From contig JAQTZF010000001.1 of assembly GCA_028687915.1 (NCBI GenBank), positions 930,634-994,633 on the forward strand: 64,000 bases of DNA, in the 5' to 3' direction. The stretch comes from Candidatus Daviesbacteria bacterium. GTDB lineage: Bacteria > Patescibacteriota > Microgenomatia > Daviesbacterales > UBA10151. The translations under genes and the position numbers were made by a program. The notes under the pieces were generated by a model, which worked only from the letters and a program-made list of their open reading frames with translations, had not been told where the DNA came from and made no database searches. Of the stretch, positions 1,519 to 48,064 are shown one piece after another. Position 1 is the first letter of the stretch; every line of letters starts with the position of its first letter.

Positions 1519-2580
1519 CTAATATTCTTTTCTAAGAATCTTATCGTAAACCCCTTCATATCCATCTACCATATTTTTTACACTAAATTTATTTAGAACA
1601 TATTCCCTGCAATAGCTCCTGTTTATACTTTGAATATTGGCAATTGCCTCTATCATTTCTGAAATATCATTAACTACAAACCCGGATTTTCCATCATCAA
1701 CTACTTCCAGCATTGAACCCAAATTAAATGCCACAACCGGCGTGCCGCATGCCATTGATTCAATAACAGTAAGTCCAAATGGTTCTGGCCAGGTTATGGG
1801 ATGCAAAGAACATAGCGCTTTACTCATTAGCTTGTTTCTTTCTGTTTCATCTACTTCACCAACTAATCTAATTTGATCAGATAATTTGGGTTCCACAAAT
1901 TGTCTAAAATATGAAATATCTTGTAAACTATCTGCTGCTAAATCTATTTTTGCAGCAATTATTAATGGCATGTTTAAATATTGTGCCACCTCAATTGCAA
2001 TATGAACACCTTTTTCCATGGAAATTCTACCTGTAAAAAGTAAATAATCACCTCGTTTTTTGGAAAACGGAAAGTGTGTCATATCTAAACCATGATAAAT
2101 ATTTCCTATAAACTTTAACTTTGGAGCAGAAGCAGCTTGTGCATGAGAAACAGAAACTACAAATGGGTTTTTTAGGTTTTCAAAGACTCTTTTTTCATTT
2201 ACCCCAAATGCCCCATGCATAGTCATCACCACCGGAACCCTGGATAGGTTGGCTGTAGGTAAACTCAGATAACCATTATGGTCATGAATAATATCAAACT
2301 GGTCCTGCAATTGATAAGCATTGCCAATATTTAACAAAGATAAAATATTAGCACCATATACATTATGTAAAACCTTTGACTGGCGAAGTGATTTTGGATA
2401 AATTGAAACAAGTTTAGCAGAAGTAATAGAATCACCACTGGCAAACAAGGTTACCTCATGACCTCGTTTAACAAGCTCTTCAGTCAAAGCATAAATGACT
2501 CTTTCTGTCCCTCCATACTTATTTGGCGGAACTCTTTCTGCAATGTTTGCTAGCTGTGCTATTTTCAATCTTTTTTCCAA
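1519..2580 (-). CDS. Glycosyltransferase family 4 (GT-B, retaining)
   Basis: C-terminal EPFGLTVIESMACGTPVVA motif characteristic of GT4. 353 aa. Confidence 0.8.
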   Translation of the reverse strand: MEKRLKIAQLANIAERVPPNKYGGTERVIYALTEELVKRGHEVTLFASGDSITSAKLVSIYPKSLRQSKVLHNVYGANILSLLNIGNAYQLQDQFDIIHDHNGYLSLPTANLSRVPVVMTMHGAFGVNEKRVFENLKNPFVVSVSHAQAASAPKLKFIGNIYHGLDMTHFPFSKKRGDYLLFTGRISMEKGVHIAIEVAQYLNMPLIIAAKIDLAADSLQDISYFRQFVEPKLSDQIRLVGEVDETERNKLMSKALCSLHPITWPEPFGLTVIESMACGTPVVAFNLGSMLEVVDDGKSGFVVNDISEMIEAIANIQSINRSYCREYVLNKFSVKNMVDGYEGVYDKILRKEY

Positions 2581-2699
2581 TTATTATTATATAGCTTGGT
2601 TTATTGGCTGCCTGTAAGATACATTACTGCGAAAATTTTGATTGTATCTTATAGTGAGGTTGAAAATAATAAATACTATCGGAAGGGGGTGAGTAATTA

Positions 2700-3035
2700 A
2701 TGTATTGGTTAATTGGTATATTAGGTTTGGCATCAATCGCTGCTCCATTTTTACTAAATTATAATGATAATGTTTTTGCTTTATGGACAAACTTAATCTT
2801 TGGAGCGGTATTATTGGTGGCGGCATTACTAGAAGCTTTTGCCGATGATAAGGATACCTGGGAATACTGGGTAGTAGGCATAGCAGGCATAGGAGCAATT
2901 CTTGCTCCGTTTATTTTAGGTTTTAATGCTTTGACTGCAGCATTATGGACAATTGTAGCTATTGGAATAATAACTATAGTTGCAGCAGGCACTAAAATTT
3001 TTCAAAGTGGTTCATCCACAAGGTTAGGTTATTAA
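2700..3035 (+). CDS. Small integral membrane protein, internally duplicated (SPW-repeat-like)
   Basis: Two similar halves: IGILGLASIAAPFLLNYN...ALWTN and VGIAGIGAILAPFILGFN...ALWT. SD GGAAGGGGGTGAG lies 5 nt upstream. Confidence 0.5.
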   Translation: MYWLIGILGLASIAAPFLLNYNDNVFALWTNLIFGAVLLVAALLEAFADDKDTWEYWVVGIAGIGAILAPFILGFNALTAALWTIVAIGIITIVAAGTKIFQSGSSTRLGY

Positions 3036-3074
3036 GCAGGCCCTCAACCTGAGGAAGAAGGGAGGTGAAAAAGA

Positions 3075-29727: not shown

Positions 29728-30552
29728 TCAACTTTTAATATTTACTGCTTCTACTACATTTTCCATCAAAGAAATAACAGTCATTGGACCAACACCACCT
29801 GGAACCGGGGTAATTCTGGAAGCTTTATGAGCAACAGATTCAAAATCCACATCCCCTACTACTTTTCCATCTACTTTTTCAGCTCCTACATCTATTACGA
29901 TTACATTGTCTTTTACCATATCTCCAGTAATTAACCCTGGAACACCTGTAGCTGAAATTAATATATCAGCTTGTAAAGTACATTCTTTTAAATTAGTAGT
30001 TTTAGTATCACACACTTCCACATTAGCGTTCATTTTTCTTAAGCTTTCTGCTACTGGTTTTCCTACTAAATTACTAGCTCCTACTACTACCACTTTTTTG
30101 CCTTCAACAGAAATATTTTCATCTTCCAAAATAGAAATAACAGATCTGGCTGTAGCTGATAAAAATTTTCCTTTAGTGGTTAGACCATCAACATCTTTTT
30201 CTCCATCAATAAGCTCCAATAATTCACTATCATTTTTGCCTTTTAAAAATTCTTCAGGTAAAGGCAATTGAACCATAATTCCATCCACACTTTCATCCTG
30301 ATTTAGCTCTTCTATTTTAGAACAAACAACTTCCCACTCGACAAGTGGGGAAGCTAAATGAATTGGTTGGAAGTTGATTCCAATCTCAATAGCTTTTTTT
30401 TGCTTGATGTTAGTATATAAAACAGAAGGAGCGTCTTCTCCTATCAAAAAAGAAACCACTTTTGGGGTTTTATTTAAAGTTTTTATAACTTCTTCTAATT
30501 TTTGCTGTCTTAAGAGGGCAAGCTTTCTGCCATCGATTATGTTATCTTCCAT
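29728..30552 (-). CDS. folD: Bifunctional methylene-THF dehydrogenase / methenyl-THF cyclohydrolase
   Basis: VQLPLP motif and NAD(P)-binding GASNLVGKPVA and TGVPGLITGDMVK motifs. Confidence 0.85.
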   Translation of the reverse strand: MEDNIIDGRKLALLRQQKLEEVIKTLNKTPKVVSFLIGEDAPSVLYTNIKQKKAIEIGINFQPIHLASPLVEWEVVCSKIEELNQDESVDGIMVQLPLPEEFLKGKNDSELLELIDGEKDVDGLTTKGKFLSATARSVISILEDENISVEGKKVVVVGASNLVGKPVAESLRKMNANVEVCDTKTTNLKECTLQADILISATGVPGLITGDMVKDNVIVIDVGAEKVDGKVVGDVDFESVAHKASRITPVPGGVGPMTVISLMENVVEAVNIKS

Positions 30553-30599
30553 GGCTATATCTTATGCTATTTGAGGCTAAAAAACAAATATAGGATTAG

Positions 30600-31889
30600 T
30601 TAATTTATCCCTGGAACAGGGAACTTTTCTGCAAATGTTTTTATTTCTGCTCTAATAATTTTTAAGTTTTTATTTGTGTGTAACTTTTTCTTAGTTTCTT
30701 TTAAGAAATCTTTTCTTAAATCCTGTTCCTGTGGTAAATCTAATCCTCTTATTTCTTCCAAAGCCCTTTTTATCCAACCAGCAATTTTAATCATATCTTT
30801 TTCCTTCATTCCTCTGGTGGTTAAAGCAGGAGTACCTAGTCTTATCCCAGAAGGATAAAAAGGAGAGGCAGGTTCACCAGGAATAGTATTTTTATTTACA
30901 GTAATACCTGCTTCTTCCAAAGCATATTGAGCCTGATAACCCATTCCATAACCATAACTGGTCAAAGGCATTAGTACCAGATGAACTTCTGAGGTTGTAT
31001 CTAATTCTTTTGCCAAAACAGCAGCATTTTTTGCAACTTGAGCAGCATATTTTTTAAAAGAAGGCTGTAAAGCTTCTTCTAGAGATACTGCAATAGCAGC
31101 AGTTTGATGATTATGAGGTCCACCCTGTAAACCTGGAATAATTGCTCTTTCAATTTTAGATTTAATTTCCGGATCTTTTTTTAAGCCTCTTTCAGTCACC
31201 ATTACCATAGCTCCTCTTGGACCCCTTAAAGTTTTATGAGTTGTGGTTGTAATAATATCAGCAAAGGGGGCAGGAGATTCATGTACTCCTCCTACAATTA
31301 AACCTGCAATATGAGCAATATCTGCAACCAATGTTGCCCCAACTTTATCTGCAATTTTTCTAAATTTTTTATAATCTAGTTTATAGGGATAAGCTGTTGT
31401 TCCTGCCCAAATTAATTTTGGTTTATGTTTTAGTGCTAAAGCTTCTAGCTCTTCAAAATCTATTTTCCAGTCTTTACCAACATTATAATTAACTGCTTTA
31501 TAAAAAATACTGGAAAAACTTAAATTAGCTCCATGGGTTAAATGCCCTCCTGAAGAAAGAGCTAACCCCATTACGGTATCCCCTGGACTACATACAGCCA
31601 TGGTTACAGCCATATTGGCAGGGGAACCGGAATAAGATTGGACTAAAGCAACCGGCACATTAAATAACTTTTTAGCCAAATCAACTGCATAATTTTCTAT
31701 TTCATCAATCACTTCATTCCCACCATAATACCTTCTGCCAGGAAAACCTTCAGAATATTTATTTGTGAGTATTGAACCAAGTGCTTTTAAAACATCTGAG
31801 GACACATAGTTTTCAGACGGAATCATCTCCAAGCCTGTAACTTGTCTTATCTTTTCTTTTTCAATTAAAGGAAACACCTTGCTTGCCAT
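30600..31889 (-). CDS. glyA: Serine hydroxymethyltransferase
   Basis: PLP-lysine motif TTTTHKTLRGPRG and N-terminal LEMIPSENYVS. Confidence 0.9.
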   Translation of the reverse strand: MASKVFPLIEKEKIRQVTGLEMIPSENYVSSDVLKALGSILTNKYSEGFPGRRYYGGNEVIDEIENYAVDLAKKLFNVPVALVQSYSGSPANMAVTMAVCSPGDTVMGLALSSGGHLTHGANLSFSSIFYKAVNYNVGKDWKIDFEELEALALKHKPKLIWAGTTAYPYKLDYKKFRKIADKVGATLVADIAHIAGLIVGGVHESPAPFADIITTTTHKTLRGPRGAMVMVTERGLKKDPEIKSKIERAIIPGLQGGPHNHQTAAIAVSLEEALQPSFKKYAAQVAKNAAVLAKELDTTSEVHLVLMPLTSYGYGMGYQAQYALEEAGITVNKNTIPGEPASPFYPSGIRLGTPALTTRGMKEKDMIKIAGWIKRALEEIRGLDLPQEQDLRKDFLKETKKKLHTNKNLKIIRAEIKTFAEKFPVPGIN

Positions 31890-39733: not shown

Positions 39734-40288
39734 CTAGAGTTCTGTGAGCTCTTTTACTTTATCTTTTCCTAATTCTTCAATAAATACCGTTGATTTTTCA
39801 ATTAATTCTTGTAAAATTTTCTCTCGTCTTTGCCACTCATCTTCCCCAAAAACATCTGCTTCTTTTTCTTGCTCCCATTTAGCTCTGATATCTTGTCTAA
39901 TTTGTCTAAAATTAATTTTTGTTTCTTCTTTTTTAAGATGTACAACTTTAATTAGTTCCTCACGTCTTTCTGCTGTTAAAGGAGGAATTGGTAATCTGAT
40001 AATTGCTCCTTCAAATGAAGGATTTAAACCTAAGTTTGCTTCCTGAATGGCTTTAACAACATTATGCACAATAGAAGCATCCCAAACTTGTACAGTTAAA
40101 AGATTTGGTTGTGGTGCAGAAATATTTGCCACTTCCAATAATTTTAATCTTGTGTCATAAGCTTCTACTGGAATGTTTTCAATAAATGCTGGATTTGCCC
40201 GACCAACTCTAATAGAGGATAGTTCGTGCTTTAAATGTTCAATCGCTGATTGAATTGATGTGTTTGCTTCGTTTAATACTGGATCCAT
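39734..40288 (-). CDS. frr: Ribosome recycling factor
   Basis: 184 aa, with a typical RRF pattern across its length. Confidence 0.9.
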   Translation of the reverse strand: MDPVLNEANTSIQSAIEHLKHELSSIRVGRANPAFIENIPVEAYDTRLKLLEVANISAPQPNLLTVQVWDASIVHNVVKAIQEANLGLNPSFEGAIIRLPIPPLTAERREELIKVVHLKKEETKINFRQIRQDIRAKWEQEKEADVFGEDEWQRREKILQELIEKSTVFIEELGKDKVKELTEL

Positions 40289-40737
40289 TATTCGCCTAGT
40301 TCAATTCTAGCAAATTTTCCAATCTGAATGTTCTCCCCAACTTTACCAATCACTGATTTAACTAAAGCATCAATTGTTTGTGAAGGATCCCGGACATAAT
40401 CTTGTTTTAATAATTTTTCTGTATTTTCAGGATTCATGGATGCAATTTGCAAGGCTATTTCATGAGCTAAATTCTTAAAAGCTTCTGTTTTGGCTACAAA
40501 GTCTGTCTCACAAAGAAGATCTACAACAACTCCAACTTTACCTGCATGTGAATAAACTTCGACTAATCCAGCTTTAACTTCTCTGTCTGCTTTTTTGGCT
40601 GCTTTATCAAAACCTTTTTGTTTGATGATTTCGAGGGCTTTTTTGTAGTCACCTTTTGACTCTGTGAGGGCTTCTTTACAGTCAGCAATTCCAGCTCCTG
40701 TTTCTTCTCTTAACTTTTTTAAATCCTCAATATTCAT
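40288..40737 (-). CDS. tsf: Elongation factor Ts (short form)
   Basis: N-terminal LRE(E)TGAGI(A)DCKEAL UBA-like motif. 149 aa. Its stop overlaps the frr start. Confidence 0.8.
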   Translation of the reverse strand: MNIEDLKKLREETGAGIADCKEALTESKGDYKKALEIIKQKGFDKAAKKADREVKAGLVEVYSHAGKVGVVVDLLCETDFVAKTEAFKNLAHEIALQIASMNPENTEKLLKQDYVRDPSQTIDALVKSVIGKVGENIQIGKFARIELGE

Positions 40738-41740: not shown

Positions 41741-42466
41741 ATGGCAAAAGAATGTTTAGCAATTCCAACCGAAATATTAGTTCAGGAAAATATCCTTCCG
41801 GCAAAGCGGAAAAATAAAGCTTTATATATTCCCTTATCCACTATTGGTGGTGTTGAAACTATTTATAATTTAACAGCACAATATGGAGAATACAGAGATA
41901 GAGAAGGTGAACAACCAGTTGAAAAAGATCCTAATTTTCAGCAATTAATTATGTATGCTTTTGTACTTAGAGATAGAAGTTTTTTAGCTTATCAAAGAGG
42001 AAGTCACAAAGAAGGAAATTATGATGAGAGTAGATTAGAAGGTAAGATTTCACTAGGATTAGGAGGTCATATTGAACGCAGTGATTTAACTTTAGAAGAC
42101 TCGCTATATAGAGAAATTGATGAAGAGGCTGAAATATGGATTAATAATGAGCCAATTAATTTTAGACATTCAGATCCTGAATTGGGACCTAAAATTTGGT
42201 CTATGAAAAACTACATTGATATTACTCCTGTAGGTTTGATTAAAGATGAAAGAGATTCGGTTGGAAAAGTTCATTTAGGAATTGCCTGTAGATTAACTAC
42301 AAAACTTAAACAAGCAGATATCAGAGTAAAAACAGGTAGAGAAAGTGTTAGCTACCGGTACCTAACCCCAAAAAAATATCAGCAATTAGTTGAATCCCAT
42401 AAATTAATACCAGAAGGATGGAGTGATATTGTTTTTAGAAATGAAATCTTAACTCCTATCAAATAA
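41741..42466 (+). CDS. Putative Nudix-like hydrolase (divergent Nudix box)
   Basis: LGLGGHIERSDLTLEDSLYREIDEEAEI approximates the Nudix box GX5EX7REUXEEXGU, with non-canonical spacing and G to E in the last position. Confidence 0.4.
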   Translation: MAKECLAIPTEILVQENILPAKRKNKALYIPLSTIGGVETIYNLTAQYGEYRDREGEQPVEKDPNFQQLIMYAFVLRDRSFLAYQRGSHKEGNYDESRLEGKISLGLGGHIERSDLTLEDSLYREIDEEAEIWINNEPINFRHSDPELGPKIWSMKNYIDITPVGLIKDERDSVGKVHLGIACRLTTKLKQADIRVKTGRESVSYRYLTPKKYQQLVESHKLIPEGWSDIVFRNEILTPIK

Positions 42467-44725
42467 TTCAGTACGGCTTAAAGGATTTGGTTCTTTATCC
42501 AATTTTAGACCTGAAAGATAAGGATCTGATTTTGCAATTAGTTGGTTTGCTTTATAAGATAAATCCCGATAATTAATATGACCACCATTCCTAGCTCTTA
42601 AGTGAGTTAAATAAAGTGATTGCTTTGGATCTCCATGCATCCATATATCTGTTTGATGAGCTAATGGTAATAAGTTTAAAACAAAAGAGTAATCAATAGA
42701 ATCTCCATACTTATTATTTACATCATCCACAAACTTATAAAGTTTTTCATAATAATCATCCAAATCCTGTTCAAACTTTTTAGCTATTTTTTCAAATTTA
42801 GGTACTTCTGTAAGATACAATGGTAAACCAAAACCACAACTCATTACTTGCAAAGCTGTATCTATAGTCCAACGTTCTCCATAAATTAAAGGAATAGGAA
42901 TAAATCTTTTATTGGCTCTGTGTCTATTCCAATCACGGACTTCTCCCATAAAACAATTAAGTTCTAATGTCATTCCAGAAGTTCCTGCCCAAAGTGGTAA
43001 TTCCTGATTATGATTGTGTCCTTCAAATAAAATTTCACTAATTTTCTTTTTTATGTTTGGTGTTTGGTTATTAACCCAGTCCAATAATTTCTTCCTATTT
43101 AAACCTGGCCAAATAGTCAAAAGGTATTGAGCAACCATTTTATCTCCTTCGGAGTATTTTTCTGATAACAAGTTAACACCTTGTTTTACTTTTCCTTTAA
43201 GCTTTCTATTAATAGGAACTTCTTCTAAGAAGTTTGTTTCATTTGTTATAAAATTTCGTAAACTTACAATACTATTGTTTGTTATTAATGAAGCCTCACT
43301 GTGTCTGATTAAACTTGGAGCCTCTGCTTTAAATTCTAAACTTTTTTCAATTTCTTTTAATGGAGTAAATAATTGCTCTATTTGAAAACCAACACGATGA
43401 TAAAAAGGAATAGGAGAGCTCTTTAATTGTGAAATTATTCTGGACCAATCTCTTGCAGAAGTATCAAGAGATAAGCCACTACATGCTCCCAGTGGCAAAA
43501 AGAATCTTACACAATCCATAACCCTTGAATTTAAAGCTCCTTTGTCATTATCTCCCGGTTTATAGAATTTTTCAAAAGCCGCCAAAATCTGATCTTTATG
43601 GGAAGCATAAAGATCCAGAGCGAGTTTACCAAAAGACTGATATGTATCTTCCAAATTTGCTAATTCTTCTGATGGAAAATCATCTGGTAAATAATTTCTA
43701 ATTGGATGCAAAGCAGCATCTTTAAATTTTGATTGGTATCTGCTTGATTTCTCCTGACCCGCATTTACTGCAGCATTGTTAAATAATGCTAAACATAAAT
43801 GCATCGGGGTATTATGTGTACTAATTTCCAGGTGAGCCATATCCCCTACAGATTTATGTCCATAATTTCTAAACATTTCATCAAGTTTTTGATCTGGATC
43901 TACACCCTTTTCCCCCATTTCATACATTATTTCCCAGGGAGCTCCAGGAGCTCTGGAATGCCTGGCTCCGGCCCAAGCTCTATGAGCTGCAGTTCTATTC
44001 TTTGAATTGGCAATGGTGGTTGTAATTACCACCCCTGTGATTTTATCCTCTAAACAAACAAGCCTCAACCCTGTGTCTTTTTCCGAATAAACAAACCATT
44101 TAAAGTCATCTTTTTCCAGCTCTTTCTCAGGTTGTGGATTCTTTAAAAAACTATCAGTAACTAAATTTATAATATCTAAATGTACTTCTTCCGGAGTTCT
44201 TGTGGCATAAACTTTTTTCCAACCATATCTGGCTCCTAGTTCTAGATGTATTCGCTGACCCTTTTCCCAAATCTCATCATCTGCTTCATTGCGATGATTT
44301 TTTTCTATACCGCTTACAAATCTTTCTCCATGTAATAAAATTGCTAAATCTTCTTTTAATAATTTTTTATTTATTTTCTCCAAAGCCTCAAGGGGTACAC
44401 CCCAGGTCATACCCCATGCTACTCCTGTACCAGTATAATCTTCTGCTAATACCCACTTACCTGCATTTAAATATGACTTAAGTTTTGGTTCAAAATCTGC
44501 TCTATTTTGAGCATAAAGTTTTTGCAAATCTAAATCTGGCATTTTTAAACCCTCTCGCAAAACTGCATTTATTTTTGGTCCGGTTGGTTTTAAATCATAA
44601 ATTGGATATTTTAAGCGGATAGTCTTAATACCTTTTTCCTGTAAGGATTTTTCAAGTAATTCAACTTGTTTTGATTTACCTAAATTATTTGCTCCGTATA
44701 AAACAATAAATTTACCTTTTTTCAT
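42449..44725 (-). CDS. thyX: Fusion protein: N-terminal Tmk-like P-loop kinase domain plus two tandem ThyX (Thy1, flavin-dependent thymidylate synthase)-like domains
   Basis: P-loop LYGANNLGKS with Tmk-like layout. ThyX-like domain 1 (about aa 200-430) has HKSVGDMAHLEISTH...AGQEKSSRY and RVMDCVRFFLPLG...SARDWSRI, keeps S..RY but has NNA in place of RHR. ThyX-like domain 2 (about aa 560-758) has TLELNCFMGEVRDWNRHR and LNLLPLAHQTDIWMHGDPKQSLYLTHLRA, keeps RHR but lacks SxRY. By-eye alignment to T. maritima ThyX. Confidence 0.55.
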   Translation of the reverse strand: MKKGKFIVLYGANNLGKSKQVELLEKSLQEKGIKTIRLKYPIYDLKPTGPKINAVLREGLKMPDLDLQKLYAQNRADFEPKLKSYLNAGKWVLAEDYTGTGVAWGMTWGVPLEALEKINKKLLKEDLAILLHGERFVSGIEKNHRNEADDEIWEKGQRIHLELGARYGWKKVYATRTPEEVHLDIINLVTDSFLKNPQPEKELEKDDFKWFVYSEKDTGLRLVCLEDKITGVVITTTIANSKNRTAAHRAWAGARHSRAPGAPWEIMYEMGEKGVDPDQKLDEMFRNYGHKSVGDMAHLEISTHNTPMHLCLALFNNAAVNAGQEKSSRYQSKFKDAALHPIRNYLPDDFPSEELANLEDTYQSFGKLALDLYASHKDQILAAFEKFYKPGDNDKGALNSRVMDCVRFFLPLGACSGLSLDTSARDWSRIISQLKSSPIPFYHRVGFQIEQLFTPLKEIEKSLEFKAEAPSLIRHSEASLITNNSIVSLRNFITNETNFLEEVPINRKLKGKVKQGVNLLSEKYSEGDKMVAQYLLTIWPGLNRKKLLDWVNNQTPNIKKKISEILFEGHNHNQELPLWAGTSGMTLELNCFMGEVRDWNRHRANKRFIPIPLIYGERWTIDTALQVMSCGFGLPLYLTEVPKFEKIAKKFEQDLDDYYEKLYKFVDDVNNKYGDSIDYSFVLNLLPLAHQTDIWMHGDPKQSLYLTHLRARNGGHINYRDLSYKANQLIAKSDPYLSGLKLDKEPNPLSRTELFDRS

Positions 44726-45156
44726 TTGTGACCTGTACTACCAAAACCTCCCCTATCAGTTTTTTTTATCTCATCAACTTCTTCCCATTCTGCGATTTCA
44801 ACTGGTACAAAAATACCCTGACCAATTCTTTCTCCTCTTTCTACTACAGTTTCTTCATCAGTAATATTGTAAACAGCTAAGTTATATTCATCAGTTGGAC
44901 CACAAAAATCCTGATCACCAATCCCCACCCCATTTGCCTTAATTAATCCTTTCTTAAAAGGAGCTGAGCTTCTTAGTGTAATTAAAAACATATAACCTTT
45001 TGGAGTTCCAATAATTATATTTGTTGGAATTTTCACCAAAGTTTTAGGAGGAACTACAGTTGTAATTCTGGCATACAAATCACAACCCACTGAACCATCT
45101 GTTTGATATTTTGGTAAGGGCAGTTCTTTATCAATCCGCGTAATTTTAACTTTCAT
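44722..45156 (-). CDS. dut: dUTP diphosphatase
   Basis: dUTPase motifs (DGSVGCDLYA, RSS, GxIDxDYRG-like FKKGLIKANGVGIGDQDF). Its stop overlaps the start of the downstream fusion gene. Confidence 0.85.
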   Translation of the reverse strand: MKVKITRIDKELPLPKYQTDGSVGCDLYARITTVVPPKTLVKIPTNIIIGTPKGYMFLITLRSSAPFKKGLIKANGVGIGDQDFCGPTDEYNLAVYNITDEETVVERGERIGQGIFVPVEIAEWEEVDEIKKTDRGGFGSTGHK

Positions 45157-45221: not shown

Positions 45222-45851
45222 CTATTTTTTAAAGTTTTTCCAATACTGGCTTGCCATTGGTTTTGGGTTTTTTGAAAATTCATTAATATATTTACTTTTT
45301 AAAGCTGCACTACCATAACAATTTTCTGCTTCACAAGTAAGTGCAGAAAATCTAACTTGACCAATTGGCATGTCTGGATAAATTAAAAGTGGCTGGTCAG
45401 TAAGATTAGTAATTTCTAAAGTAACATGACCAGAAAATCCCGGATCAATAAAACCTGCTGTTGCATGAATAACAAGTCCCAATCTACCTAAGCTACTTTT
45501 TCCTTCTACATTTGCTAAAAGTTGTGATGGTAAATGAAGCCATTCTGAAGTTACTCCTAAAATAAATTCATGTGGATGTAACATACCTCCTTTATTTAAA
45601 TCCAAAACCTCATATTCCAAATACTGATCAACAGGTTTTTTTAAATCTATCACTGCATCTTTATTTCTGCGTCTCGCAAAAACCATTATTGTCTTTGCTA
45701 AGTGAAGATCAATTGAAGATGGTTGAATATTCAAATCTTTATTAGGCTTAACTTCTAAATACCCTTCTTTTATTGCTAACTTAATATCTCTATCAGATAA
45801 TACAGCTCCGCCTTGTTGTAGAAAAGTTAAATTTTTATTATTCATACTCAA
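45222..45851 (-). CDS. dcd: dCTP deaminase
   Basis: N-terminal LSDRDIKLAIKEG and QPSSIDLHL; C-terminal trimeric dUTPase-like fold motifs. Confidence 0.85.
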   Translation of the reverse strand: MSMNNKNLTFLQQGGAVLSDRDIKLAIKEGYLEVKPNKDLNIQPSSIDLHLAKTIMVFARRRNKDAVIDLKKPVDQYLEYEVLDLNKGGMLHPHEFILGVTSEWLHLPSQLLANVEGKSSLGRLGLVIHATAGFIDPGFSGHVTLEITNLTDQPLLIYPDMPIGQVRFSALTCEAENCYGSAALKSKYINEFSKNPKPMASQYWKNFKK

Positions 45852-45887: not shown

Positions 45888-46457
45888 TCAAGTAGTCAAT
45901 TTAGTTAAAATATCATTCAGCTTTTGTTGGAACTCTTCTGGTGTGCCTTCATTAATAATATGGAACTCTGCTCTTTCCATACATTTTTCAACATTCATTC
46001 CGAAATTTTCTGAATCATTCTTCTCTGCTTCTAAAAAGCTTTCCCAGGTAATTGGATCAGATCTTCCATCTAAAGCTCTTTGCTTTATTCTTTCAAATCT
46101 TATTTTTTGATCAGCCTCTATTGCAACAAGGTGAAAATTTGGTAATTTTTGTAAGTATTCTATTTCACCTAAACTGCGTACCCCATCAATTATGGCTTTT
46201 TCTGTATGCTGTTCTTTTATAATTTCCCAAGCCCTGCTAGCTAAAATTGACGACCCAAATTTTTCTCTTAATTCTCCTCCGGTTTCTGCTAATCGTTCGC
46301 GGGTTATATCTAAACCTCTTTTTTTAATTTCTTCCCTGATTTGGTCAGAAAGCGAAAAAGAAACAAATCCATGCTTTTCTACTAAATATTTAGCAGCTTC
46401 TCCTTTACCTGAACAAATCTGTCCTACAAACCCGATGACTATTTTAGAATTACTCAT
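45888..46457 (-). CDS. P-loop nucleoside/nucleotide kinase (dephospho-CoA-kinase/dNMP-kinase-like fold)
   Basis: Walker A GFVGQICSGKGEAAKYL and lid-like RxxxR/GRSD motifs. Its start overlaps the pyrG stop, suggesting translational coupling. Confidence 0.5.
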   Translation of the reverse strand: MSNSKIVIGFVGQICSGKGEAAKYLVEKHGFVSFSLSDQIREEIKKRGLDITRERLAETGGELREKFGSSILASRAWEIIKEQHTEKAIIDGVRSLGEIEYLQKLPNFHLVAIEADQKIRFERIKQRALDGRSDPITWESFLEAEKNDSENFGMNVEKCMERAEFHIINEGTPEEFQQKLNDILTKLTT

Positions 46458-48064
46458 TTCTTAATTTTACTGGCAGCTTTAACAAATCCTGTAAATAAAG
46501 GATGCGGTTGCAAAGGACGGGATTTTAATTCTGGATGAAATTGAGTTCCAATAAAAAATGGATGGTCTTTTAATTCTATAATTTCAACTAATTTACCATC
46601 AGGTGAAGTCCCTGCAATAACCAAGCCATTATTTTCCAGTTCCTGCTTATATTTATTATTAAACTCATATCGGTGACGGTGACGTTCACTAATTCTTTGT
46701 TTTCCATAAAGGCTTTTTGATATTGTTTTATTTTGCAAAACACAATCCCACGCCCCAAGTCTCATAGTCCCACCATAATTTTTTTCCAACAACTTTTTTT
46801 CTTGGTCTGGCATGATATGGATAACTGGATATTTGGTCTTAGAATTTATTTCTGTGGTATTTGCATTTGTAAAATCTAAGACATTTCTGGCAAATTCTAC
46901 TACTGCCAATTGCATTCCATAACATAATCCAAGGTAGGGAATTTTGTTTTCTCTACAATATTTAATTGTTTCTATTTTTCCTTCAATATCCCTTGAACCA
47001 AATCCACCTGGAACAATAATCCCTTGAAAATTTTTTAATAGACTTATATCTTTTTCAACTTTCCCTGCATCAATCCATTCTATTTCAGGTTTATATCCTA
47101 CTGTGTAGGCAGCATGTTTAAGTGCTTCAATTACTGAAATATATGCATCAGACAAAACACCATTACCACTGGAAAAATACTTTCCAACAATTCCAATTTT
47201 TATAGGTACTTTTGCAATTTCAACACTATGGACAAATTCCCGCCATTTTGCCAAATCCGTCTTTTTCCTTTTCAAATTTAATTTTTCTAAAATCCTATCT
47301 GTCAATTTACAAGCTTCAAAATTTAATGGTACTTCATAAACATTTTTTACATCAGGCGCTGGAATAATATCCTCTGGTTCTATTCCAGTATTAAAAGATA
47401 ATCTTTTAGCACGGGGAGCATCTATAGATTCTGTTGATCTTGCAAGTAAAATATCAGGCTGAATACCAACGGAATGTAAATCACGAACAGACATTTGAGC
47501 TGGCTTGCTCTTCATCTCACCTAAAAATGATGGTACTGGCAAATATGTTACATGAATATGTACAACTTCATTTTGTTTTTTAAGTTTTAATAGCCTATTT
47601 GCTTCAAGAAATAATACATTTTGATATTCACCAGTAGTTCCACCAATTTCTACAACAACTATGTCTGCATTATTAGCTTTCCCAGCCAATTGAATGCGTT
47701 CAATAATTTCCTGAGTTACATTATGAATATCAACATAGTCTCCCTCATATTCCAGGTTTCGTTCTTTTTGGATAACTGTTAAATAAATACTTCCTTGGGT
47801 AGCAATATTTGTGGAATTTAAACTTTCACCTAAGTATCTTTCATAATGCCCTAAGTCTTGGTCAGCTTCTTTACCATCATCAAGAACAAATGTTTCACCA
47901 TGAGCAAGCGGATTCATAGTTCCTGCATCAACATTTAAATAAGGATCCATTTTTAAAGGGACTACTTTATAACCAGCTGCTTTTAAAAGAAGGGCTATGG
48001 AAGCAGTTGCAATTCCTTTTCCTATTCCAGATATCACACCACCACTAACAAAAATATATTTCAT
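46454..48064 (-). CDS. pyrG: CTP synthase
   Basis: N-terminal synthetase domain (FVSGGVISGIGKG) and C-terminal GATase (GLCYGMQL, HPE). Confidence 0.9.
   Translation of the reverse strand: MKYIFVSGGVISGIGKGIATASIALLLKAAGYKVVPLKMDPYLNVDAGTMNPLAHGETFVLDDGKEADQDLGHYERYLGESLNSTNIATQGSIYLTVIQKERNLEYEGDYVDIHNVTQEIIERIQLAGKANNADIVVVEIGGTTGEYQNVLFLEANRLLKLKKQNEVVHIHVTYLPVPSFLGEMKSKPAQMSVRDLHSVGIQPDILLARSTESIDAPRAKRLSFNTGIEPEDIIPAPDVKNVYEVPLNFEACKLTDRILEKLNLKRKKTDLAKWREFVHSVEIAKVPIKIGIVGKYFSSGNGVLSDAYISVIEALKHAAYTVGYKPEIEWIDAGKVEKDISLLKNFQGIIVPGGFGSRDIEGKIETIKYCRENKIPYLGLCYGMQLAVVEFARNVLDFTNANTTEINSKTKYPVIHIMPDQEKKLLEKNYGGTMRLGAWDCVLQNKTISKSLYGKQRISERHRHRYEFNNKYKQELENNGLVIAGTSPDGKLVEIIELKDHPFFIGTQFHPELKSRPLQPHPLFTGFVKAASKIKK

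Follow-up and report, generated by a model that had tools for sequence, protein, structure and literature searches.

A thymidylate kinase-like protein fused to a tandem ThyX whose active-site motif is divided between two diverged halves

Canonical ThyX (FDTS) is of interest as a target for drugs, and its mechanism is puzzling: its active site is assembled from three monomers (PMC11940539, PMC9931769) and, as the three chains that build each site are identical, the share of each one is difficult to tell apart. The roles of the subunits have been described for the enzymes of M. tuberculosis and H. pylori (PMC6514825). In a full-text literature search, no paper turned up that describes a ThyX in tandem form or with a split motif; we found no solved structure or paper on such a double-ThyX, and the same search gave no study of activity, cofactor or oligomer for any of its members, the best existing annotation being that of 'thymidylate synthase' in phage records and in PHROG 36506. 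The module comprises 471 clusters at 50% identity, from CPR bacteria, DPANN archaea, Ktedonobacteria and cyanophages, and is thus a widespread yet apparently unstudied enzyme form. Here, we describe one of its members, fused to a kinase-like domain in the very small genome of a CPR bacterium, Candidatus Daviesbacteria.

The window, i.e. the whole 64-kb stretch of DNA that was analysed, contains at positions 42449–44725 (minus strand, as for all features given below) an uninterrupted ORF of 758 codons plus stop. Its product is identical to the NCBI entry 'MAG: hypothetical protein PHQ59_05250 [Candidatus Daviesbacteria bacterium]', a naming that fits with the ThyX part matching no thymidylate synthase model of NCBIfam at E≤1. 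The protein is composed of a Tmk-like P-loop head (aa 1–193; 44147–44725) followed by two ThyX-fold halves, half 1 (aa ~204–480; 43286–44116) and half 2 (aa 481–758; 42452–43285). This three-part layout had been proposed in an earlier note made from the sequence alone, and Pfam searches bear it out: Thymidylate_kin (PF02223) matches aa 11–185 with 45.4 bits (cutoff 27) and Thy1 matches two stretches with a total of 35.7 bits (cutoff 24.8). The kinase match and the two Thy1 stretches expected in that note were thus recovered, whereas neither half taken alone reaches the Thy1 cutoff (23.4 bits, E=5.7e-5, for half 1 and 17.5 bits for half 2). The motifs that it had pointed out were located at aa 11–18 (GANNLGKS), aa 327–330 (SSRY), aa 316–319 (N-N-A-A, replacing RHR) and aa 597–603 (RDWNRHR). 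Both halves have the same fold as canonical ThyX and can be aligned collinearly with each other (hhalign E=4.8e-4), which points to an internal duplication. A profile built on half 2 only retrieves solved ThyX sequences from the PDB (PBCV-1 ThyX, E=4e-6); against the single T. maritima ThyX sequence the half-profile HMMs match weakly (E=0.01 and 130, PDB-size Z), so that this last comparison serves to set the register only.

The complete ThyX motif, RHR-x7-S(-x-R-Y), is present in neither half and becomes whole only when both are considered. Conservation was counted in 32 diverse relatives sharing 23–57% identity. In half 1, the dUMP-binding and catalytic half, the RHR position is occupied by F-N-N-A-A (aa 315–319; 43769–43783), the motif being lost and the position variable across the family. 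The serine loop is kept as G-Q-E-K-S-S-R-Y-Q (aa 323–331; 43733–43759), where Q324, E325, S327, R329 and Y330 are equivalent to N85, E86, S88, R90 and Y91; Q, S and R are found in 32/32 relatives, E in 27/32 and Y in 26, with F in 6. C-V-R-F-F-L-P-L-G (aa 405–413; 43487–43513) carries R407, the equivalent of T. maritima R147 that contacts the dUMP phosphate (R in 30/32). At the positions equivalent to N85, S88, R90 and R147, half 2 is hydrophobic or deleted. Half 1 also holds a second, FAD-binding set of residues: Y-G-H-K-S (aa 288–292; 43850–43864), in which H290 and S292 align with T. maritima H53 and T55 on the FAD side and are kept in 32/32 and 31/32 relatives, and S-A-R-D-W (aa 423–427; 43445–43459), in which R425 corresponds to R165 of T. 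maritima and R190 of M. tuberculosis (FAD; R in 28/32). Equivalents of H53, T55 and R165 are conserved (28–32/32) in half 1 only.

Half 2 shows the reciprocal pattern. Its R-D-W-N-R-H-R-A-N-K-R-F motif (aa 597–608; 42902–42937) keeps the R74, Q75 and RHR equivalents (R601 32/32, H602 29/32, R603 31/32, D598 32/32) and has lost the Ser88 loop, removed by a 6-residue deletion that is followed by an invariant G-R-F; R607-F608 may be what remains of R90-Y91. The C-terminal motif T-H-L-R-A-R-N-G-G-H-I-N-Y-R (aa 707–720; 42566–42607) contains R710, the equivalent of T. maritima R174, and probably H716 as that of H178; R710 and G714 are present in 32/32 relatives and R720 in 31/32. The RHR and R174 equivalents, conserved in 29–32 of the 32 sequences in half 2, are not conserved in half 1. 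The recovery of solved ThyX sequences by the half-2 profile, together with a motif split that is invariant or nearly so in 32 relatives, argues against a chance resemblance. The reciprocal retention and loss that the earlier note had read in this one protein is therefore a property of the family and not the decay of a single gene. The same partition is seen in gp020 of Ma-LMM01, a cultured cyanophage.

How these residues could be brought together depends on the subunits that contribute to a site. The earlier note had assumed that each dUMP site is built from two chains, but the canonical site takes three subunits (PMC6514825, PMC11940539). With respect to these, half 2 would give the R-H-R that binds FAD and dUMP and the R174 equivalent, corresponding to the 'subunit A' role, and half 1 would give the Q-E-x-S-x-R-Y for dUMP binding and catalysis and the R147 equivalent, corresponding to the 'subunit C' role. 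Half 1 would also fill the 'subunit B' role, in which a third subunit binds FAD, through its H-x-S and R165 equivalents. A single site would thus need half 1 at two different positions, and for this reason the protein should have to dimerise. The resulting dimer would be a pseudo-tetramer made of two copies of each half, with two complete sites, two dead sites and one FAD per chain; the R-F that is invariant in half 2 suggests that the 'dead' sites may keep some role. In this scheme, as in the earlier note, the number of sites is halved, and one chain would not suffice to complete a site, as half 1 is needed in two positions. Our main reading, to which we give a probability of roughly 0.6, is that the protein is bifunctional and that two chains pair to form a pseudo-tetramer, in which the usual four active sites are reduced to two. 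It could be objected that the tandem is functional as a single chain, i.e. as a monomeric pseudo-dimer that has one active site and does not need to form a pseudo-tetramer: the AlphaFold model of the two halves is compact and confident (predicted pTM 0.92), and single-chain derivatives of oligomeric enzymes exist in the pathway, such as the herpesvirus dUTPase. We judge this distinctly unlikely, because half 1 is the only half to conserve the residues of the 'B' role (H290, S292, R425) and those of the 'C' role (S327, R329, Y330, R407), and these belong to two positions around one flavin of the three-subunit site, so that a single chain has too few copies of half 1.

Further support for the bifunctional reading comes from the gene context. 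The fusion is the last gene of the string pyrG-kinase-dcd-dut-fusion, formed by a probable pyrG (CTP synthase; 46454–48064; translation read by eye, and found in the same position, also as an ORF translation, in the independent assembly L025), a small P-loop nucleotide-kinase-like gene of the same operon (45888–46457; AAA_17 / PRK08356-like), dcd (dCTP deaminase; 45222–45851; TIGR02274, 159.7 bits) and, directly upstream, dut (dUTPase; 44722–45156), whose stop codon shares 4 bp with the ATG of the fusion. Nearby, folD (29728–30552) and glyA/SHMT (30600–31889), which together span 29728–31889, account for the supply of 5,10-methylene-THF, the carbon donor of ThyX. Within the 64-kb window of this 1.1 Mb genome, neither a second tmk nor a thyA or a canonical thyX was found. 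In Woesebacteria the order is dcd...thyX2-ndt-tmk-tdk-glyA-folD, and among 43 distant CPR genomes dcd, glyA and folD occur within 8 kb of the double-ThyX gene in 29, 28 and 26 cases, respectively; the genes that surround it in Ktedonobacteria are uninformative. A downstream NUDIX-like ORF, considered as a part of the system, was dropped, being not conserved in the L001 assembly and replaced by a different, unassigned ORF in L025. The operon and the nearby glyA and folD point to dTMP and dTDP synthesis, and the dUMP to dTMP to dTDP logic put forward in the earlier note agrees with them. The double-ThyX would convert dUMP into dTMP with a reduced pyridine nucleotide and with CH2-THF, provided through the glyA and folD of the window, and the head, as a member of a Tmk subfamily, would most likely turn dTMP into dTDP; we infer both catalytic activities, and with them any substrate channelling. 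The same context bears on the possibility that the double-ThyX methylates a substrate other than dUMP (UMP, as PolB does in polyoxin synthesis, dCMP or a modified-base step) and is not the thymidylate synthase of the cell. We regard it as quite improbable: in half 1 every ThyX residue for dUMP binding and catalysis is invariant, the gene directly follows dcd and dut, the makers of dUMP, and adjoins tmk and tdk in relatives, its linkage to glyA, folD and dcd is seen in the majority of the distant CPR loci, and the window holds no second thymidylate synthase.

The substrate of the kinase head is not certain, owing to two features: where Tmk has D-R-Y, with the catalytic Arg, the head reads A-E-D-Y (aa 94–97; 44435–44446) and has no Arg, and the score with the equivalog model TIGR00041 (36.5 bits) is far under the 83.25 cutoff. 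The P-loop GANNLGKS (aa 11–18; 44672–44695) fits G-x4-G-K-S/T and has no Arg; as candidates for the basic residues that serve the transition state, R135 (G-E-R-F) is conserved in at least 90% of the subfamily and R145 (N-H-R-N-E) in most of it. These features, together with the second small kinase gene in the operon, would be compatible with a head that is not a dTMP kinase but phosphorylates another nucleotide or, as a module without catalytic activity, binds nucleotides or has a regulatory function. We find this doubtful. The head belongs to a large, CPR-specific subfamily of stand-alone Tmk-like proteins of ~195 aa, in which E, D and Y are each at least 90% conserved and EDY is accompanied by ~40 other conserved positions, indicating that the domain is under selection. 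All significant matches of its family profile in the PDB are thymidylate kinases (best E=2.7e-28), and the head keeps the aromatic residue at the F72 position and N-R at aa 74–75, the latter presumably a thymine contact by comparison with R76 of human TMPK. Moreover, in L001 a canonical bacterial-type tmk occupies the operon slot of the head, which suggests that it is functionally equivalent to the EDY-type kinase. A tblastn match of E. coli ThyA to the kinase-head region (E=4.6e-4) was rejected as spurious, this region being solidly Tmk. The fusion is Rosetta-stone evidence for a joint function of the double-ThyX synthase and the Tmk-like proteins of EDY type in CPR bacteria.

The junction between head and half 1 lies at FLKNPQPEKEL (aa 194–203; 44117–44146). 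In the unfused relative L085, whose Tmk is 86% identical, the tmk stop codon stands at this place, followed by a spacer of 36 nt and by the start of thyX. Compared with this form, the junction shows an in-frame deletion of several codons, unlike the slip of a single base, and it offers no in-frame start codon from which a separate thyX could begin. The fusion is recent and came about, in one Daviesbacteria-like lineage, through an in-frame deletion between two adjacent genes that took out the tmk stop, the spacer and the thyX start. An artefact of assembly or sequencing that joined two neighbouring genes could be suspected, given that a collection of 5.8 billion sequences holds a single identical protein and that the genes are separate in close relatives. 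This explanation is hardly credible, and effectively refuted, in view of the type of junction and of L025, an independent assembly that encodes, in the same operon, a 759-aa fusion orthologue about 81% identical to ours. A metagenome scan for the junction gave 27 matches, 0 of which encoded the fusion protein. The fusion with Tmk is thus rare, being present here and in one other assembly, L025. The earlier note knew of no characterised Tmk plus double-ThyX protein; only the fusion is rare, the double-ThyX itself being not unusual, since it forms a large family.

The double-ThyX seems to be the thymidylate route in CPR bacteria, DPANN archaea and Ktedonobacteria, all large groups of which little is understood. 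As automatic annotation mostly labels it 'hypothetical protein' in those groups, metabolic reconstructions may wrongly score thymidylate synthase as absent. A more ambitious joint reading would make the tandem ThyX an obligately asymmetric 'half-of-sites' FDTS, with two FAD and two sites per dimer, never characterised and serving as the sole thymidylate synthase of many CPR bacteria, DPANN archaea, Ktedonobacteria and some cyanophages, and its partner kinase a new dTMP kinase variant lacking the DRY Arg; we give this combination slightly less than an even chance. If true, the fused protein would be a ready-made single-polypeptide system to study synthase and kinase. A natural enzyme in which the three roles are divided between two halves would open the way to role-specific mutagenesis, to spectroscopy with one flavin per chain and to half-site tests.

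Among known systems, the closest is canonical ThyX/FDTS (PF02511; T. maritima TM0449, 1O26; M. tuberculosis, 2AF6; PBCV-1 A674R, 4FZB), which has the fold common to both halves and the same pathway context, and whose set of FAD- and dUMP-binding residues is complete when the two halves are pooled. It differs in that its chains of ~220–250 aa, each with a full RHR-x7-S-x-R-Y, form a homotetramer whose four sites are identical and take three subunits each, whereas the double-ThyX is one chain of ~560 aa with two copies that have diverged and share the motif between them, and is predicted to be a dimer with two sites. The double-length 'thymidylate synthase' of cyanophages (Ma-LMM01 gp020, YP_851034, and MaMV-DC; PHROG 36506), on which we found no biochemical or structural study, has the same tandem and motif split; gp020 is about 28% identical to the fusion over 92% of its double-ThyX part, and differs in having 491 aa, no kinase head and an annotation by homology only. 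The head shares its P-loop, layout, N-R and LID region with thymidylate kinases (PF02223), especially those of eukaryote type (P. falciparum, 2YOF; human, 1E2D), and departs from them in the conserved EDY that replaces DRY, in the P-loop without Arg and in its fusion to ThyX. Two unrelated folds offer conceptual precedents only: protozoan DHFR-TS, in which consecutive thymidylate enzymes are fused so that sequential steps occur on one polypeptide, and herpesvirus dUTPase, a single-chain derivative of an oligomeric enzyme with duplication and complementary motif loss, which leaves fewer sites that are asymmetric. Finally, the ThyX of Chlamydia trachomatis, which we take to be ~529 aa long, would also be of double length. 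This enzyme is an experimentally active FDTS that has been used in assays (PMC3498832), and, if it belongs to the split-motif family, the tandem form has already been proven to be catalytically active.

On the minus strand of the window (42449–44725), a single unbroken ORF of 758 codons encodes a protein made of a Tmk-like head (residues 1–193, 44147–44725) followed by two ThyX-like halves (residues 204–480 and 481–758). The identical NCBI entry, which lies on a 1.10-Mb contig of a Candidatus Daviesbacteria MAG, is annotated as a "hypothetical protein". An earlier note had read a kinase and two Thy1 repeats in this product, and the Pfam scan of the whole protein bore this out, with a Thymidylate_kin match over residues 11–185 (45.4 bits) and a Thy1 match in two stretches (35.7 bits summed). 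Scanned singly, the halves scored 23.4 bits (residues ~279–433) and 17.5 bits (residues ~585–735), both slightly below the Pfam Thy1 cutoff of 24.8 bits, and no NCBIfam ThyX model matched the protein. The translated ORF also carries every motif of that first reading in its place, namely the P-loop GANNLGKS (residues 11–18), N-N-A-A at the RHR position of half 1 (residues 316–319), SSRY in half 1 (residues 327–330) and RDWNRHR in half 2 (residues 597–603). No single domain of the tandem contains the complete RHR-to-S motif.

In ThyX, three monomers meet at every active site (PMC11940539, PMC9931769). In the enzymes of M. tuberculosis and H. pylori, subunit A provides the RHR motif and R199 to FAD and dUMP, subunit B provides S71 and R190 to FAD, and subunit C provides S105, R107 and Y108 to dUMP and the reactive centre (PMC6514825). 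The equivalents in T. maritima ThyX, which served as numbering reference (sequence checked against 1KQ4/1O26), are R78–80 and R174 for role A, T55 and R165 for role B, and S88, R90 and Y91 for role C. These positions were counted in 32 family members that are 23–57% identical to the window protein. The A-role residues are kept in half 2 only (R601 and R710 in 32/32, H602 in 29/32, R603 in 31/32) and the C-role residues in half 1 only (Q324, S327 and R329 each in 32/32, E325 in 27/32, R407 in 30/32, and Y330 as Y in 26 members and F in 6). Half 1 is likewise the only one to keep the B-role residues (H290 in 32/32, S292 in 31/32, R425 in 28/32); the equivalent positions of the opposite half are variable, hydrophobic or deleted. 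In the HMMER alignment, half 2 has a 6-residue deletion precisely at the Ser88 loop and its invariant G-R-F (R607) aligns to Q-R-Y; half 2 may thus have retained a relic of R90–Y91. The reciprocal loss proposed in the earlier note, with SxRY in half 1 only and RHR in half 2 only, therefore extends across the 32 relatives, and the conservation pattern indicates that the degeneracy of the halves is a conserved design and not decay.

The family defined by the double-ThyX module is large and old, and most of it is unannotated. When 1.84 billion cluster representatives were searched exhaustively with HMMER, 471 clusters were returned, 134 of them at E<=1e-30; nearly all are 500–620 amino acids long and matched from end to end. 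The ThyX of C. trachomatis, a possible further member, is about 529 amino acids long. It is an active enzyme (PMC3498832). Among species-representative genomes, carriers were found in CPR bacteria (Woesebacteria, Dojkabacteria, Pacebacteria and other lineages), in DPANN archaea (Nanoarchaeota, Woesearchaeota) and in cultured Ktedonobacteria (Dictyobacter, Thermosporothrix, Ktedonobacter). The family is also present in one jumbo phage and in the cultured cyanophages Ma-LMM01 (gp020, 491 amino acids) and MaMV-DC, both annotated as "thymidylate synthase", and PHROG 36506 is the corresponding phage family (E=6e-44). NCBI names the double-ThyX proteins "hypothetical protein", and we found no published description of the tandem split-motif architecture in the literature searched. 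The Ktedonobacteria proteins (loci L006–L022, L030 and L033) are 53–56% identical to the CPR protein, a high value for such distant phyla that suggests horizontal transfer; a similar grouping of CPR and Chloroflexi was reported for the dCTP deaminase clade Dcd2 (PMC10733785). One 144-kb contig (L087, CAZDZR010000001.1) has a 529-amino-acid double-ThyX among PhoH, NblA, tail-collar, Acb5 and RecA-like genes, neighbours that suggest a cyanophage genome which was binned as a MAG. Several MAGs titled "uncultured Gammaproteobacteria", "Pseudomonadales" or "Saccharibacteria" carry CPR-type genes (L025, L024, L036, L038, L040, L041, L045 and similar loci).

The gene context supports a role in thymidylate synthesis. 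The fusion gene ends a one-strand string with minimal spacing, pyrG - small P-loop kinase - dcd - dut - fusion, its ATG overlapping the dut stop codon; family-library scans identified dut, dcd and the small kinase, and pyrG was named from its translation by reading alone. The genes glyA and folD, whose product is 5,10-methylene-THF, are found ~11 kb from the fusion, and the 64-kb window contains no other tmk, no thyA and no canonical thyX. Synteny links the locus to Woesebacteria, whose gene order reads dcd ... thyX2 - nucleoside deoxyribosyltransferase - tmk - tdk - glyA - folD - ... rpsB - tsf - frr, thyX2 denoting the double-ThyX gene. Across 43 distant CPR genomes, dcd (29/43), glyA (28/43) and folD (26/43) occur within 8 kb of the gene; the Ktedonobacteria loci showed no informative gene linkage. 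The small P-loop kinase (45888–46457, minus strand; AAA_17, NCBIfam PRK08356-like, 97.6 bits) keeps its position in the related loci L025 and L085 and is possibly a (d)NMP kinase; its sequence further resembles the kinase-like N-terminal portion of NF041025, the "anti-phage dCTP deaminase" model (E=2.8e-14). Convergent with the fusion and overlapping its 3' end by 18 bp is a 241-amino-acid ORF (41741–42466, plus strand) with a NUDIX match of 17.3 bits, below cutoff; at this position L025 has a 205-amino-acid ORF with no Pfam match, and the ORF downstream in locus L001 shows no similarity to that of the window. Between rpsB and frr, a 149-amino-acid ORF (40288–40737, minus strand) is a putative tsf by synteny with the Woesebacteria locus alone; the gene at this position encodes 156 amino acids with an EF_TS match in Woesebacteria and 150 amino acids in locus L086. 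A typical bacterial EF-Ts is about twice as long as the 149-amino-acid ORF, and if the latter is tsf, a truncated EF-Ts may be usual in this group. The window has a GC content of 30–37%, nearly all its genes between 29 and 57 kb are on the minus strand, and its GC skew is negative in almost all 2-kb bins from ~8 kb on; it probably lies inside one replichore.

The head is Tmk-like and non-canonical. It belongs to a large CPR group of stand-alone Tmk-like proteins of ~195 amino acids, up to 87% identical to it, and the only solved structures matched by the profile of this subfamily are thymidylate kinases, the best being that of Plasmodium (E=2.7e-28). It keeps the P-loop, which has no Arg, and the N-R thymine-binding motif; at the DRY position E-D-Y is conserved instead, and against TIGR00041 the head scores far below the cutoff. 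Besides E-D-Y for D-R-Y, the subfamily is marked by the signatures K-Y-P-I-Y-D-L-x-P-T-G-P and G-E-R-F-x-x-G-I-E-x-x-H-R-N-E. This conservation argues for a functional domain. A tblastn match of E. coli ThyA to the second half of the head (44123–44482 on the minus strand; E=4.6e-4, 25% identity over 133 amino acids) was rejected as spurious, the region being solidly Tmk.

In a word-indexed search, the window protein alone had both domains on one polypeptide, none of the top 150 double-ThyX cluster representatives is long enough to include a kinase head, and a junction-sequence scan of metagenome contigs revealed no further fused copies. The fusion is real, recent and rare. An independent assembly labelled Gammaproteobacteria (L025) has, in the same operon, a gene for a 759-amino-acid orthologue that is ~81% identical; since this operon is Daviesbacteria-like, such taxonomic labels look unreliable. 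L085, whose Tmk is 86% identical to the window head, has the same operon, in which tmk ends with TAA and is followed after 36 nt by a separate thyX2. Alignment of the DNA reveals that, in the fused lineage, the stop codon, the spacer and the opening codons of thyX2 are missing, which gives an in-frame join with no in-frame start codon for a separate thyX left at the junction. In the CPR relative L086, a 236-amino-acid ORF without Pfam match (2334–3044 of that locus) separates tmk from thyX2. L001 has a thyX2 that is 78% identical, and its tmk slot (474–1142) is occupied by a bacterial-type tmk with only 25% identity to the window head; one Tmk type seems to have displaced another in situ within a conserved operon. 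The operon position and this replacement by a canonical tmk argue for a dTMP kinase. The fusion itself is a minor event, specific to its lineage and of the Rosetta-stone type.

Taken together, the sequence data point to a bifunctional Tmk-like/ThyX-like protein, whose synthase part belongs to a tandem form of flavin-dependent thymidylate synthase that is widespread and uncharacterised and divides the active-site roles between its halves in a conserved way; it is predicted to act like ThyX despite failing the single-domain motif test. One full site would consist of one half 2 (role A) and two differently placed copies of half 1 (roles B and C). Since a chain contains only one half 1, the smallest active assembly should be a dimer of tandem chains, i.e. 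a pseudo-tetramer. In a D2 layout with the half-2 copies occupying positions A and D and the half-1 copies positions B and C, two of the four canonical sites would be complete, each half 1 acting as B for one site and as C for the other, and the remaining two would have neither RHR nor the serine loop. We thus predict that each chain binds one FAD and that each dimer has two sites. The halved number of sites agrees with the earlier note; its picture of a site built from two chains is refined, three monomers being involved in each (PMC11940539, PMC9931769). The enzyme class and the pathway are ordinary; what merits experimental study is the natural asymmetric design, the EDY kinase and the breadth over CPR, DPANN, Ktedonobacteria and phages. 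The same split is found in Ma-LMM01 gp020, whose half 1 contains GQERSTRYQ and whose half 2 contains RDFNRHR and LRSRVGGHINYR, and compared with canonical ThyX the tandem is predicted to follow a different quaternary logic.
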